A stretch of DNA of 64,000 nucleotides, taken from an uncultured Verrucomicrobiae bacterium. Its GTDB lineage: Bacteria; Verrucomicrobiota; Verrucomicrobiia; Chthoniobacterales; UBA10450. Shown piece after piece: positions 29,124-61,477 of the stretch. A program made the position numbers and the translations under genes. The notes beneath the pieces were generated by a model. The model worked only from the letters and a program-made list of their open reading frames with translations, was not told the origin of the DNA and searched no databases. The stretch spans positions 89,871 through 153,870 of the forward strand of contig CAWAYD010000008.1 of the NCBI GenBank assembly GCA_963786175.1, read 5' to 3'. Each line of letters starts with the position of its first letter. The stretch's first letter is position 1.

Positions 29124-29328
29124 ACCTGCAATCAGGTTCGGCGACGAATAAGATCCACCTGCGGGAGCTTTTCAGCCTTCTGTTTGGCTTGCTATCGGTT
29201 ATAGCCCTAATTCCAGGTTTCGAGCTTCATCTTATCCGGGCTTACAACCCGAACGCTGGCGACGCCGAAGAGTCCAGAATCAACTACCTAACGAGTATAG
29301 GTCACCGGTCGTTGCCCAAGTATCAGTT

Positions 29329-31593
29329 CTAGCGACCAAAAATCCCGCGCAAGCTGCCGCGCGATTCTGGCTTGGCGGACACTTGCACCGGCCAGCATTC
29401 GACGATTTCGAGGGCGAGAAAGCGGAAGAGGGTGAGACGAGCAAACTTAATATCGAGCCGCAGATTCTTTGAGATCTGTGCGATCGAGCGGCTGCCGTTG
29501 AACTGCGAAGCAAACTGCGCTTCCGCCACGGTAAGACGCAGCTCCTGCACGCGGTCGAACCCATCGCGGGTGTAAGCCGGCACCGACAACGCATCTACGG
29601 TGGCTCTTTCACCTAACTCCTGATACTGCACGAAACGCAACGTGCTTAGCGCCCACTGGTCGATGCTTTCTTCCGCGGTTGGCAACTCATTCGCGTAGCC
29701 GGGTAGCGCCTGCTTTTCAAACGTGAAACGCACCCGATCGGTCCAGAGCTGTGAGAACAGCTTTTGGCCGTAGTGCTGCACGAGTTGCATTCCTGGTTCG
29801 TGGAGGACGAGACCTTCGTTCGCCAGCGTGACAAAGATAGGGCAACCGTCCTTTGCCTGTCGCTCGCGCGCGGCCTCGACGCGTTCGCTCGGCACGTTGA
29901 GCAATGTGACCGGCGATTCTTCGCAATACAAAACTGGGTTTCGCGTCGTGACGACAACGACGCGCCCGTCACGCGCCAATAATTCAACCGAGTCACGGGA
30001 CCAAAACGCCCGCAGAATGCCAGTCAACTTCTCGCGCGCAATCGTTTGCAGCGCCCAATGCAGCGAAAAGAAACTCGAATCGCCACAAAAATAGGCATTA
30101 GCCGTCGTCGGCTCTTCATCGTGTGTCTGGCCGTCGGTTCCGTCTCCGTCAGGCAGTTTCTGTTCTACCTGCGAGTGCTGTTCCGTCCCCGGCGGCGGAG
30201 CTTTCCCGGCAGCAACTGATGAACCTTGTCCTGCCGGTTCCACCTCGCGAATCGAAGGCGCTTCAGGCACAAAGGACGATTTAACGGGCGTGTTCAGCGA
30301 GTTGGACTCATGATTTGTAGCCAAGACATCGTTGCCGACTGGAGGCACAAAGGTCGGCGTCTGACGCTCAGAGGAAGGAGGGGGTGTAACCTTTCGAGAC
30401 AGGGGAGTGGGTAAGGCTGCTGCATCCGACGTTCCCATGTTTTGTTCGCCCGGAAGAAAATTACGCAGCGCTGCGAGTAGCGCATCGGAGGTAAATGGCT
30501 TGTTAAGCAAACCGATCAGGTTAGGCAATTCGTTCCGATCGGGTTTCAGGTCGCTTCCAAATCCCGAGATATAGACCACCGGCACCTTGGCCGTTTCCGG
30601 AATGGCGATAAGCCGACGACAAACCTCGTCGCCTTTCATATCCGGTAAGACAAAATCGAGCAGGACCAGATCAGGCAATTCGCTCCGGCAAAGTTGCACC
30701 CCTTCTGCACCGGTCGCCGCCGTTCGGACGTCGTAGCCTTGCTCCTCGAGGATTTCCTTCACGAAACTTAGGAGCATGATGCTGTCGTCGATCACCAGCA
30801 CGTTGTGCCCGGACATTTTCGGGCGCCGACTCGTTTCGCCAGTCATCTCGCTGTCCTGACTGCGTGATTCGTCGATCTTGCGCACCGCTTCCATGAGCAG
30901 CACCTGCCAATCGAGGTCGATCGTGTGCGGCGTACCAGGCGGCACGGCGACTTCCGAAATGTGGCCGCCCTTCCAATCGACGATTGCGTTAAAGGCCTCC
31001 AATCCTTCTTTCCCAGGGGCTATGGCGTGGCGCACCTGCCCGTTCTCAAAGTAAACCCGTGCCTTCTCGCCGTTGGGTCCGGTGAACTCGAGCATCGAGG
31101 TCGGTCCGCTGATACATTTGAGCTGAATGATGTCGGCGACGTGCAGATCGCTCAGCGTGCCTTGAAAGCGTTCGCCTTTTCCTCCGCCCGCTGGAGGGAG
31201 GAGCGCCTCTGTCAATGTGATGAAATCAGCGCGCGGAAAAGGTTTCTCCAAAAAGTGAATCGCACCGAGTCCCGCCATCCGTTCGCGCTGCGCGGCGAAA
31301 TGAATTGTCGTGAGAATGATGGCGCGCGCGTTGGGATGACTGGTGCGCAGGTCGTAAATGAACTCCTGCCCCATCTCGTAAGCCGCGTCGACGTCGAGGA
31401 CGAAAAGCGATGGCCTTTGGTCGGCAACCAACCGTTGCGCCTCGCCTAACGATCCTGCCGCCCGGGCCCGCGTGCCAGGCGCCGCTTCCTCAAGCGCCGA
31501 AAGTATTTGCATCGCAACCTTTTCGTCCGGTTCCAGGATCAGAACCTGCAGGTCGCGCGCGGGAGGGCACTCGGCAGTAGTGGCTTCGTTCAC
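29329..31593 (-). CDS. multidomain signalling protein: REC-like, DUF4388-like, REC, C-terminal DUF4388-like region
   Basis: N-terminal LQVLILEPDEKVAMQ...SLFVLDVD. Then FQGTLSDLHVADIIQLKCISGPTSMLEFTG...GQVRHAI (DUF4388-like). The second REC is HNVLVIDDSIMLLSFVKEIL...DLVLLDFVLPDMKGDEV...LNKPF. Confidence 0.8.
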   Translation of the reverse strand: MNEATTAECPPARDLQVLILEPDEKVAMQILSALEEAAPGTRARAAGSLGEAQRLVADQRPSLFVLDVDAAYEMGQEFIYDLRTSHPNARAIILTTIHFAAQRERMAGLGAIHFLEKPFPRADFITLTEALLPPAGGGKGERFQGTLSDLHVADIIQLKCISGPTSMLEFTGPNGEKARVYFENGQVRHAIAPGKEGLEAFNAIVDWKGGHISEVAVPPGTPHTIDLDWQVLLMEAVRKIDESRSQDSEMTGETSRRPKMSGHNVLVIDDSIMLLSFVKEILEEQGYDVRTAATGAEGVQLCRSELPDLVLLDFVLPDMKGDEVCRRLIAIPETAKVPVVYISGFGSDLKPDRNELPNLIGLLNKPFTSDALLAALRNFLPGEQNMGTSDAAALPTPLSRKVTPPPSSERQTPTFVPPVGNDVLATNHESNSLNTPVKSSFVPEAPSIREVEPAGQGSSVAAGKAPPPGTEQHSQVEQKLPDGDGTDGQTHDEEPTTANAYFCGDSSFFSLHWALQTIAREKLTGILRAFWSRDSVELLARDGRVVVVTTRNPVLYCEESPVTLLNVPSERVEAARERQAKDGCPIFVTLANEGLVLHEPGMQLVQHYGQKLFSQLWTDRVRFTFEKQALPGYANELPTAEESIDQWALSTLRFVQYQELGERATVDALSVPAYTRDGFDRVQELRLTVAEAQFASQFNGSRSIAQISKNLRLDIKFARLTLFRFLALEIVECWPVQVSAKPESRGSLRGIFGR

Positions 31594-31666
31594 TTTTGGC
31601 TAGGTTAAGCGCCAGTAACAAAGCAACTTCTTCGCCACTGGCCGCGGCAGATTCTAGAAATGCCGA

Positions 31667-31703
31667 CTGGGCGCGAAAATAAAAAGTCTTTTTTCGCGCC
31701 CAG
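31667..31703 (-). terminator. strong hairpin downstream of the small lipoprotein / acyl-ligase genes
   Basis: CTGGGCGCGAAAA (31667-31679) pairs perfectly with TTTTCGCGCCCAG (31691-31703), giving a 13-bp stem with A/T tracts in and around the loop. There is no clean trailing U-tract, so terminator function is tentative. Confidence 0.4.
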
Positions 31704-60513: not shown

Positions 60514-60526
60514 TCATTTCTGCAAA

Positions 60527-61462
60527 TTAGTTCGGTGTGACCGACGGTTTGGCGTTGAAGGTGACGTAAGGAACGAATTCCCCCTCAAGAGCCGCAATAT
60601 CGGAAAAGTGCGACCCATAATTGTAGGAGAGTGCAGTTCCAAAAGAATCTCCTCGGGCGAGCGCGTTGAGCAGACCAAGGAATGCGTCGTGATCGGTAGA
60701 AATAAGGAAACGCACCAACCGTTCCGACTCGCGATAGAAAAGGTGGACGGCTTTGCCTTCGGGATAACCGTTCATACCCGTCAGCTGGGCGAGCGGAATT
60801 ATTTGATCGCCGGGCAGGGACGGTGAGCGGGCATGAGCGTTGTAATTACGAGCTCGCTCATAGCTGGCGTGGGCAACGCGCGAGGTGTATTCCGCAAAGC
60901 CTTCGTTCAGCCAAAGCGGAATTGTGCGTTGATAGAATCGGTAGAGTACCAGGTGCACGATCTCGTGGCCTAACGAATTGCTGGCAAACTTGTATTCCGC
61001 ATTGCGTTGGATGAAGAGGCTGCCTCCCAAATGAATTCCGCCCGTCCACGGTTCGAGGTGGCCGGCCACTTGGAACCGTTTCCAATCCTCAGGTTTTTCG
61101 AAAATGTAGATGTGAGCTTTGGCCGGCGTACCGGGTGCCACCTCTTTGGCCAGCTCTTCGCTAATGACGCGAAAGTAAAACTCCGCTTCCACCGATATCG
61201 GTGTGGCGACGTAGCTGTGGACGGAGTGATAAACAAAATGCTCCGTCTCGGCGTGCTTCCATTCCCCGGGATGGAGCGCGAGGGCTTGCGCGCCAAGCGG
61301 GTTTCGATCGGGCGAGCTGAGCGCGGAAAAGGCGACCTCGGGCAGTGCGTTTAGACCCGGTGCGGGTTCATCCTCGCCGGGAAGCGCCGGGGCAAATGCA
61401 ACCATAATAACCGCAGCCGCACTCGAGATGATCCTTAGGCAGGAAGTGCGCTGATTCCACAT
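60527..61462 (-). CDS. secreted peptidase-MA-like (HExxH ... NEGFAEY) protein
   Basis: Signal-like IISSAAAVIMVAFAPA, then SLGHEIVHLVLYRF...PLWLNEGFAEYTS. Confidence 0.7.
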   Translation of the reverse strand: MWNQRTSCLRIISSAAAVIMVAFAPALPGEDEPAPGLNALPEVAFSALSSPDRNPLGAQALALHPGEWKHAETEHFVYHSVHSYVATPISVEAEFYFRVISEELAKEVAPGTPAKAHIYIFEKPEDWKRFQVAGHLEPWTGGIHLGGSLFIQRNAEYKFASNSLGHEIVHLVLYRFYQRTIPLWLNEGFAEYTSRVAHASYERARNYNAHARSPSLPGDQIIPLAQLTGMNGYPEGKAVHLFYRESERLVRFLISTDHDAFLGLLNALARGDSFGTALSYNYGSHFSDIAALEGEFVPYVTFNAKPSVTPN

Positions 61463-61477
61463 TGCCTAACGAATCCT

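Follow-up and report, generated by a model that had tools for sequence, protein, structure and literature searches.

A hyper-abundant non-palindromic 9-mer in a Chthoniobacterales genome and its resemblance to DNA uptake sequences

Background

Why should one short word recur dozens of times inside and between unrelated genes in one part of a bacterial genome, and be missing from the part next to it? The question is raised by a stretch of 64,000 nucleotides (nt) from a Chthoniobacterales genome (hereafter 'the window'), of which the right-hand ~35 kb are rich in the non-palindromic 9-mer GCCTAACGA. The same word reads TCGTTAGGC on the opposite strand, and its 8-mer core is CCTAACGA. Hyper-abundance of this word is undescribed so far in Chthoniobacterales, and the pattern, as far as it can be judged from sequence, most resembles that of the uptake tags of Neisseria and Haemophilus.

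Chthoniobacterales are mostly uncultured soil Verrucomicrobia and are among the most abundant soil bacteria. In papers up to 2025-26, uptake sequences are described only in Neisseriaceae and Pasteurellaceae. Their origin and purpose are still debated, and an independent case in another phylum would be useful. The explanation favoured here, for which the grounds for belief and for doubt are about balanced, is that GCCTAACGA may be a lineage-specific self-recognition word for DNA import in a clade of Chthoniobacterales, spread by molecular drive.

Results

Abundance of the word in the window

Exact copies of GCCTAACGA number 40 in the window (24 on the + strand and 16 on the - strand), and every copy lies within 31444-61472. 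Chance levels were derived from dinucleotide-preserving shuffles and from Markov models (order 0-3), for which training was also done with the words masked. Markov models of order above 3 are unusable, because they are trained on the word itself and hence 'predict' it. The shuffles of the window give a mean of 0.48 exact copies with a maximum of 4, and the Markov models give 0.15-0.6 copies in 35 kb, both strands counted. The Markov comparison, which the original prediction had proposed on the scale of the genome, thus leaves the count of 40 far above expectation, and an enrichment of about 100-fold over chance in the right part of the window is confirmed.

The core CCTAACGA is found 49 times in the window, compared with a shuffle mean of 1.19. 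Of these copies, 47 lie at 29287-61472, a density of 1.46 per kb, and 2 in 1-29000. Sites with at most one mismatch to the 9-mer number 76 in the window versus 13.2 in shuffles; of the one-mismatch sites among them, the right part has 27 and the left 29 kb has nine. The 24 + and 16 - copies of the original prediction were recovered on recounting, as were its seven core-only sites and the one-mismatch examples it had named (35949, 36506, 36735, 37731, and 54371); its coordinates are all correct except 47833, which is really 47834.

The sites are spaced slightly more evenly than random in the window (coefficient of variation 0.77, p = 0.045), and the same is seen across relatives (Stouffer Z = -2.5 in 27 loci, which are partly non-independent). 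Mildly even spacing would also suit the main and serious rival explanation, namely that the word, like HIP1 in cyanobacteria, is selected for an abundant cytoplasmic binder with a part in nucleoid structuring, segregation, or another chromosome-wide role unrelated to import. We consider this rather unlikely, on evidence given in the sections below.

A local strand bias had been pointed out at 56.5-61.5 kb. The run in question (11 + and 1 -) can be confirmed, yet the series as a whole shows no significant departure from random order in a runs test (23 runs versus 22.6 expected). The cumulative GC skew has a shallow minimum at about 44 kb, too weak for an origin call, and the change of sign there matches no change in the orientation of the words in the window.

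Reading frames, codons, and flanks

Frames and orientations were counted on our own gene calls, with the frame of an amidase-like gene set by hand from the open reading frame (ORF) at 55615-57615. Of the 47 core sites in the right part, 37 are inside coding sequence, two supply stop codons, and eight, rather than the seven counted originally, are intergenic. Where the coding strand reads TCGTTAGGC, the word is translated through TCG-TTA-GGC as Ser-Leu-Gly (SLG) at 15 sites and as xVR at five; where it reads GCCTAACGA, CTA-ACG (Leu-Thr, LT) occurs 11 times and CCT-AAC-GAN (PN[DE]) six times. All four stop-free frames are occupied, and the orientation relative to the gene is antisense in 20 cases and sense in 17. 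This bears out the frame use described in the original prediction, though not its numbers (16, 5, 9, and 8 in the same order, and 21 versus 19 for orientation); the discrepancies come from the choice of gene starts only. As had also been noticed there, GCC-TAA copies of the word form the TAA stops of prfA (34770-34772) and of the DUF1003 gene (45067-45069). Of the Leu codons in the genes of the window, TTA and CTA are used least (4.5% and 2.9%, respectively, outside the words), and the words contain 13 TTA and 10 CTA Leu codons.

The mild flank bias reported earlier (T-rich on the 5' side, A on the 3' side) is small but real, with T at -3 and -4, C at -2, and A at +1. When the 47 window sites are aligned on the core, the information is confined to -4..+2 (t-T-c-G-CCTAACGA-a), and the remaining flanks are random; 203 non-orthologous sites pooled from relatives behave likewise. 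Since the flanks are random, the unit is a word of 9-12 bp and no repeat element, and the copies do not reduce to one repeat family.

The occupation of all stop-free frames in both orientations, the use of rare codons, and an amino-acid-changing conversion in murA (see below) together mean that the force acts on the DNA word and not on a peptide, as had been proposed. A trivial origin in a dispersed repeat or miniature inverted-repeat transposable element (MITE), a conserved peptide motif, codon bias, or an assembly artefact is scarcely credible in view of the random flanks, the four frames, the two orientations, the rare codons, and the mismatch with the Markov models; moreover, the same word is found in metagenome-assembled genomes (MAGs) of many independent projects and technologies.

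Distribution and variants of the word in relatives

With the PrfA protein, 80 related loci were retrieved, all from MAGs of Chthoniobacterales or Verrucomicrobiota and from many independent projects. Nearest to the window are L026 (98% in PrfA) and L003. In about 30 related MAGs of independent projects, GCCTAACGA is the most frequent or the most over-represented 9-mer (0.2-1.6 per kb). The pooled loci of the main clade (491 kb) contain 337 copies versus 1.8 expected, an excess of about 190-fold. Many more distant lineages display a low excess (3-6 copies per 20 kb versus about 0.2 expected), and others have none. A metagenome scan added further word-rich soil contigs. Local synteny was tried as a proxy for core versus accessory DNA and was rejected as invalid; it gave only a weak trend (0.60 versus 0.8-1.1 words per kb).

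Copies with one mismatch are enriched about 4-fold, and in the pooled main-clade loci the enrichment is position-specific. The enriched changes are G8>A (65), G1>C (43), A5>G (37), A9>G (29), and G1>A (26), and changes at positions 6-7 are nearly absent, with C7>T found once. The CpG inside the word is therefore asymmetric with respect to transitions: GCCTAACAA (G8>A) has 65 copies and GCCTAATGA (C7>T) one, although the two changes affect the same CpG on opposite strands. It suggests that position 8 is degenerate (R) and that position 7 is essential. The effective motif looks like VCCTAACRA, a profile that resembles the specificity of a DNA-binding protein, and with the flanking bases the fuller form of the word is t-T-c-[G>C,A]-CCTAAC-[G>A]-A. 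Such position-specific tolerance suits any sequence-specific DNA-binding protein, including a HIP1-like cytoplasmic binder.

Conservation and creation of sites

Over 21 kb, identity among the window, L026, and L003 is ~89-91%. At 89% identity, 40% of all 9-mers are intact in L026, but of the window sites 13 of 17 are (p ~0.001). That relatives share the word at orthologous positions, which the original prediction had put forward as a check, holds even across lineages only ~75% identical: this is seen at 31444 (14 loci), 33647 (intergenic, 19 loci), 34767 (14 loci), and prmC 34919 (24 loci), and also at 35001 (11 loci).

The creation of sites can be followed in two genes. At murA 36042, GCG-CTC-GGC (ALG) is the reading of most lineages and GCG-TTA-GGC that of a few, and the window lineage has TCG-TTA-GGC. 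With the polarity given by outgroups, the path consists of three substitutions toward the word, in the course of which a rare codon was gained and Ala changed to Ser. A comparable stepwise creation is seen at prmC 34919, where outgroups have GCG-CTC-GGG, GTG-CTC-AAC, and similar sequences. Most of the differences among the window, L026, and L003, on the other hand, look like single-transition losses of ancestral words. Excess conservation, distant orthology, and outgroup-polarised stepwise creation, taken together, say that a DNA-level force created the sites long ago and still slows their decay.

The abundance of one-mismatch neighbours, mostly transitions, would also be expected if the word were a neutral by-product of sequence-specific repair or methylation, in which a biased correction of the kind known for very short patch (VSP) repair turns near-matches into the word. 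This is improbable to our mind, because known VSP effects are less than 2-fold, and because the creation of a site from three mismatches away is unlike short-patch repair. In addition, the sites are conserved beyond background 9-mers, and conservation of this sort was read by the authors of the HIP1 study as selection and not replenishment (PMC5861425).

Orientation

For orientation, 34 loci were pooled, each oriented by prfA; they are locus-scale DNA, with no complete replichore among them. The core is on the + strand 222 times and on the - strand 257 times (~46% +), with no heterogeneity between the individual loci (chi-square p = 0.37) and no relation of their ratios to local skew in GC or AT. 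A strict replichore-dependent skew had been named in the original prediction as a sign of a Chi- or KOPS-type word (KOPS, FtsK-orienting polar sequences); no skew of the replichore type is visible in the 34 loci, at the scale of a locus. The homogeneous orientation of about 50:50 in such locus-scale DNA speaks against words of this type.

Under a Chi-like explanation, a helicase-nuclease of the RecBCD/AddAB type would recognise the word, so that self DNA would be protected and recombinational repair stimulated. Chi words, too, are specific to a lineage, occur in excess, and are found preferentially in core genomes; several copies in the window lie in ruvC and holA, and the 8-mers there favour the + strand by 30:17. 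However, this preference is not upheld by the 222:257 ratio over the 34 loci with its lack of heterogeneity and of any relation to GC skew, and known Chi words are co-oriented with replication in ~75% of cases and about 5-fold less frequent. An enrichment of 100-190-fold and amino-acid-changing conversions are also far beyond Chi, and we regard this explanation as improbable, to about the same degree as that by biased repair.

Exchange among close relatives

In 600-bp windows, the nearest-neighbour pair among the window, L026, and L003 switches in blocks. It is L026-L003 at 23.5-27.7 kb, window-L003 at 27.7-34.3 kb, and again L026-L003 from 35.1 kb. The window-L003 tract of ~6.6 kb spans the border between the word-free flank (see below) and the core. 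The pattern indicates multi-kb homologous exchange, as read from sequence, between relatives that are ~10% diverged; it is compatible with transformation and nonspecific for it.

Relative to the window and most loci, an insertion of ~1 kb is present between prfA and prmC in L003 (~11083-12128) and L024 (~11040-12234).

A second word in a sister lineage

Four loci (L037, L038, L043, and L053) carry another dispersed word, AAGATCGACA, at 0.4-2.2 per kb, with 35 copies in the 16 kb of L038 (1-16251). It has random flanks and is found in both orientations and in at least five frames. The lineage with AAGATCGACA is sister to a group carrying GCCTAACGA at ~0.4 per kb, and L038 carries both words, still having six copies of GCCTAACGA. 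The occurrence of a second word in a sister lineage, and of both words in L038, therefore means that the word-generating process is general in Chthoniobacterales and that its specificity is replaceable. A self-recognition system could undergo a complete change of word more easily than could a protein of the core architecture, a point against a HIP1-like role.

Among the candidates checked, AAGATCGACA is the only second dispersed word. Three others were rejected as further dialects: AGCGTTGAA (L065) belongs to a tandem array (GCGTTGAA)n, CGTCCAACG (L055, L059) to a tandem array (CGTCCAA)n, and CGTCTACA (L012, L014) comes from a longer dispersed repeat, CAGAGCGAAGCGTCTACA. In simple k-mer counts, the tandem or longer repeats of these five loci mimic hyper-abundant words.

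The word-free left flank

The segment 1..29200 contains no exact 9-mer and two 8-mers, a number at chance level. At the density of the core, 36 copies would be expected in 1-29000, where none is found (P = 2e-16), and one-mismatch copies in the left 29 kb, nine in number, are also at chance. The flank is compositionally atypical and lineage-restricted. Its tetranucleotide correlation with chunks of the word-rich core is only 0.71-0.82, whereas the core is uniform, its 8-kb chunks correlating with one another at r 0.92-0.95. The synteny shared with all 80 loci begins exactly at 29329, and 23.5-29.1 kb is common only to L026 and L003, both of which are also without the word there. Neither a tRNA nor an integrase was found at the 29-kb border in a search of the window, and mobility of the flank is unsupported. 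The flank is thus atypical, lineage-restricted DNA; it joined before the window, L026, and L003 split, and no word has arisen in it since.

Its genes encode a glyoxalase, OsmC, a DksA-like protein, Porin_5, TonB/ExbD/ExbB-LamG proteins, ShlB/FhaC, an OmpR-type regulator, and a two-partner-secretion (TPS) filamentous-haemagglutinin pair of 1133 aa (with the TPS domain) and 2607 aa (DUF3739). The ExbB of the flank is fused to DUF2341 and LamG domains. Several loci have word-free left flanks; an rRNA operon was considered as their cause and was rejected, as there is no Rfam match and these flanks carry different protein genes.

The flank bears on two of the rivals. If the word structured the chromosome, it should also be needed in this long-resident DNA, which has zero copies; likewise, biased repair should have acted there, and near-words in it are at chance. 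DNA uptake sequences (DUS) of Neisseriaceae are over-represented in the core genome and missing from genes acquired recently (bioRxiv 10.1101/2025.10.24.684340), and the emptiness of the flank, here a single example, fits this report.

Viral contigs

A viral contig of 12,120 nt (L081, IMGVR_UViG_3300036819_000104) with a phage head module has nine exact copies of GCCTAACGA, a host-like density of 0.74 per kb. It encodes a GpA-type large terminase (373-2562), a lambda-type portal (3406-4974), an S49 protease (5149-6387), and a GP7 major capsid protein (7868-8875). It could be a long-resident prophage or a module like that of a gene-transfer agent (GTA) under the same drive, could reflect another transfer route, or could be a case of phage mimicry; a copy-making repair process would likewise account for words in it. 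Apart from this contig, only chance pairs and tandem repeats emerged when 2.9 million viral contigs were screened in four pair-pattern scans, and a search for relatives of its terminase in viral contigs gave only L081 itself.

The head genes with their host-like word density suggest a further alternative, in which the word belongs to another self-preferring transfer route, e.g. as a pac-like site for a domesticated terminase or GTA, and the logic of drive would be the same as for uptake sequences. This is very improbable, considering that the evidence is a single 12-kb contig, that no other word-rich virus was found among the 2.9 million contigs, and that the window has no such element. Known GTAs package DNA without sequence specificity.

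Three other viral contigs (L082, L083, and L084; GC ~42%) share the inverted pair GCCTAACGA-N27-TCGTTAGGC. This pair is probably one conserved hairpin element and unrelated to the word of Chthoniobacterales.

Positions of the sites

The word-rich segment (29287..61472) is native chromosomal DNA with housekeeping genes, among them prfA, prmC, a murA-type gene, an MsbA-like ABC transporter gene, mobA, fdhD, lipB, ruvC, aroB, and holA. Gene names are from Pfam matches of the window ORFs. In what follows, a sign after coordinates is the strand of the word and a sign after a gene that of the gene; sites are exact 9-mers unless called cores.

The first site is an intergenic core ACCTAACGA (29287..29294, +), at which L026 and L003 have the full GCCTAACGA. 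It is followed by an SLG site in a DUF4388 response-regulator gene (-) at 31444..31452 (+) and by a core CCCTAACGA, read as LT, in an AMP-binding gene (-) at 32419..32426 (-). The intergenic site 33647..33655 (+) is 40 nt upstream of the prfA ATG, and 34767..34775 (+) forms the last codon and stop of prfA. SLG is encoded in prmC (+) at 34919..34927 (-) and in the murA-type gene (+) at 36042..36050 (-). The ABC transporter gene (-) has SLG sites at 37430..37438 (+) and 38348..38356 (+) and a core read as F-V-R at 38468..38475 (+). LT sites follow in a MOSC gene (+) at 39409..39417 (+) and in a mobA-like gene (+) at 40186..40194 (+).

Between the convergent fdhD and HIBADH-like genes, the intergenic site 41101..41109 (-) is absent in L026 and L003. 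The HIBADH-like gene (-) contains SLG at 41560..41568 (+) and 41869..41877 (+) and PND at 41786..41794 (-). A PNE site in a metallo-beta-lactamase-fold gene (-) at 42621..42629 (-) is three bases off in L026 and two in L003. In lipB (-), the word is read as I-V-R at 43098..43106 (+), and LT is encoded in ruvC (-) at 43709..43717 (-) and in the ruvC ORF (-) at 44198..44206 (-). The stop of the DUF1003 gene is provided by 45064..45072 (+), which forms an inverted pair, 49 nt apart, with the intergenic site 45122..45130 (-). A further intergenic site is 46468..46476 (-).

A hypothetical gene of 386 aa (+) has a core read as LT at 46931..46938 (+), SLG at 47460..47468 (-), and PND at 47834..47842 (+). 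After an intergenic site (48396..48404, +), a TPR gene (-) has PNE at 48578..48586 (-) and LT at 48681..48689 (-). The intergenic site 51138..51146 (-) lies 17 nt past a DDAH-like gene. SLG is encoded in a DnaJ-like gene (+) at 52006..52014 (-), and LT three times in a DUF885 gene (+), at 52992..53000 (+), at the core 53224..53231 (+), and at 53442..53450 (+). A TPR gene (-) has PND at 54755..54763 (-). In the amidase-like gene (+), with the frame set by hand, there are a core read as LT (56547..56554, +), SLG (56827..56835, -), and PNE (57183..57191, +).

In the last part, aroB (-) has SLG at 57855..57863 (+) and 58098..58106 (+), and a hypothetical gene of 152 aa (-) has F-V-R at 58949..58957 (+). 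In holA (-), L-V-R is encoded by the core 59443..59450 (+) and at 59712..59720 (+), and SLG at 59491..59499 (+) and 59956..59964 (+). A Peptidase_MA-like gene (-) has SLG at 60968..60976 (+), and the series ends with the intergenic site 61464..61472 (+) between this gene and a GH42-like gene.

Discussion

The reading of GCCTAACGA as a word for DNA import is based on the density of the word, its non-palindromic form, its two orientations, the use of tolerated frames, the directional creation and conservation of sites, the decay variants, the absence from atypical DNA, and the lineage-specific words. In such a system, a surface or periplasmic DNA receptor of the transformation apparatus would bind double-stranded DNA bearing the word in either orientation, and fragments from conspecifics would thereby be imported and recombined more than other DNA. 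Mutations that create the word would be over-transmitted, i.e., spread by molecular drive, possibly reinforced by selection, and, where the encoded protein allows, words would build up to ~1 per kb. They would decay slowly by point mutation, mostly by transitions, and would stay absent from DNA that entered later or is otherwise not exchanged. A further step, that this may be a third, independently evolved sequence-specific DNA-uptake system outside Proteobacteria, with its specificity replaced from GCCTAACGA to AAGATCGACA at least once, falls somewhat on the side of doubt.

Several results weigh against import. Terminator-like hairpins are at chance frequency in the window and unlinked to the words, with only one overlapping a word, unlike the situation for DUS and the uptake signal sequences (USS) of Pasteurellaceae. 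The word density of L081 is not predicted by a strict word of the 'chromosomal self'. The left flank dates from about the time when the three congeners split (it has the same divergence of ~11%) and it recombines, yet it gained no word, so that a slow rate of gain is required. No competence gene was found among the ORFs of the window with Pfam and NCBIfam. A tblastn search with Escherichia coli DprA, ComEC, ComEA, PpdD, HofB, HofC, HofM, HofQ, and YggR against ~1.5 Mb of related DNA (Chthoniobacterales loci and word-rich metagenome loci), a sample too small to be telling, gave two marginal matches, a PilC-like fragment (L046) and a PilB-N-like fragment (L193). To our knowledge, natural transformation has not been reported in Verrucomicrobiota, and literature searches found no such report. 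Nor did they find a paper linking uptake sequences or competence to Verrucomicrobia or Chthoniobacter, or a publication using GCCTAACGA, TCGTTAGGC, or AAGATCGACA in this sense. Finally, the hyper-abundance and site conservation of HIP1 occur without a link to uptake (PMC5861425).

The last point also gives the HIP1-like explanation its weight, because the sequence-only signatures of HIP1 are alike: it is in 15-300-fold excess, its sites are conserved both inside ORFs and between them, and neither a peptide nor an RNA role is involved (PMC5861425). On the other side, HIP-type words are palindromic and linked to methyltransferases (PMC4390886), and GCCTAACGA is no palindrome. As to the binder itself, there is the matter of number. 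We know of no nucleoid protein that imposes an exact 9-mer ~5000 times per genome.

The DUS/USS resemblance claimed in the original prediction is thus borne out in the sequence signature of the word; the linkage to terminators is absent, and the phage copies do not fit. The resemblance to uptake sequences is real, and membership of the class is putative and unproven.

If the import reading is true, self-preferring natural transformation would shape the genomes of major uncultured soil bacteria, and the receptor would be identifiable by phylogenetic profiling across lineages with GCCTAACGA, with AAGATCGACA, and with no word. The switch of specificity between sister lineages and the existence of word-poor relatives offer a comparative test of molecular drive versus selection. 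The word is also a practical marker of native versus foreign DNA in MAGs, as with the 29-kb flank, and for binning and host assignment. Should the word be no uptake signal, it would still be of interest, as the non-palindromic equivalent of HIP1, which is itself unexplained.

Comparison with known systems

Among the known word systems, Chi and the chromosome-directing words (KOPS and architecture imparting sequences, AIMS) are likewise short, lineage-specific, and over-represented in native chromosomes. In contrast to the words here, which are at ~50:50 and homogeneous across loci, they are strongly co-oriented with replication (70% or more) and much rarer. Repetitive extragenic palindromic (REP) elements and MITEs differ more: they are longer, often form hairpins, and are mostly intergenic, while here 9-12 bp are conserved and 37 of 47 copies are coding.

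HIP1 (GCGATCGC) is alike in its strong excess, its conserved sites, and the exclusion of a peptide or RNA role, and it has no known function after decades (PMC5861425). It differs in being a palindrome tied to orphan methyltransferases (PMC4390886); GCCTAACGA is asymmetric and has no known link to a methylase.

The USS of Pasteurellaceae (AAGTGCGGT / ACAAGCGGT) share with the present word a 9-bp core, a mostly coding location in tolerated frames with particular tripeptides and unusual codons, the existence of two word types within one taxon, and slightly even spacing, which for USS was reportedly noted by Karlin et al. in 1996. The core sequence is different, however, and the helically phased AT-rich flanks of USS are lacking, the information here being limited to -4..+2; the likeness is one at the sequence level only.

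The DUS of Neisseriaceae (GCCGTCTGAA and its dialects) are also non-palindromic words of 9-12 bp that occur at ~1 per kb, in genes and in the gaps between them, in either orientation; the density of DUS and USS, roughly 1 per kb, is of the same order as the 1.1-1.5 per kb of the words here. In both cases, native or core DNA is enriched and atypical DNA is empty, there are clade-specific variants and one-mismatch decay products, and weakly conserved extra bases are present on the 5' side, as in AT-DUS. DUS often form inverted pairs in intrinsic terminators, and their receptor is the minor pilin ComP; the window has no pilin gene. In contrast, GCCTAACGA is unrelated to GCCGTCTGAA and to its dialects of 1-2 bases, belongs to another phylum, is unpaired in terminators, and is known here from sequence alone, and the word of its sister lineage differs wholly rather than by 1-2 bases.

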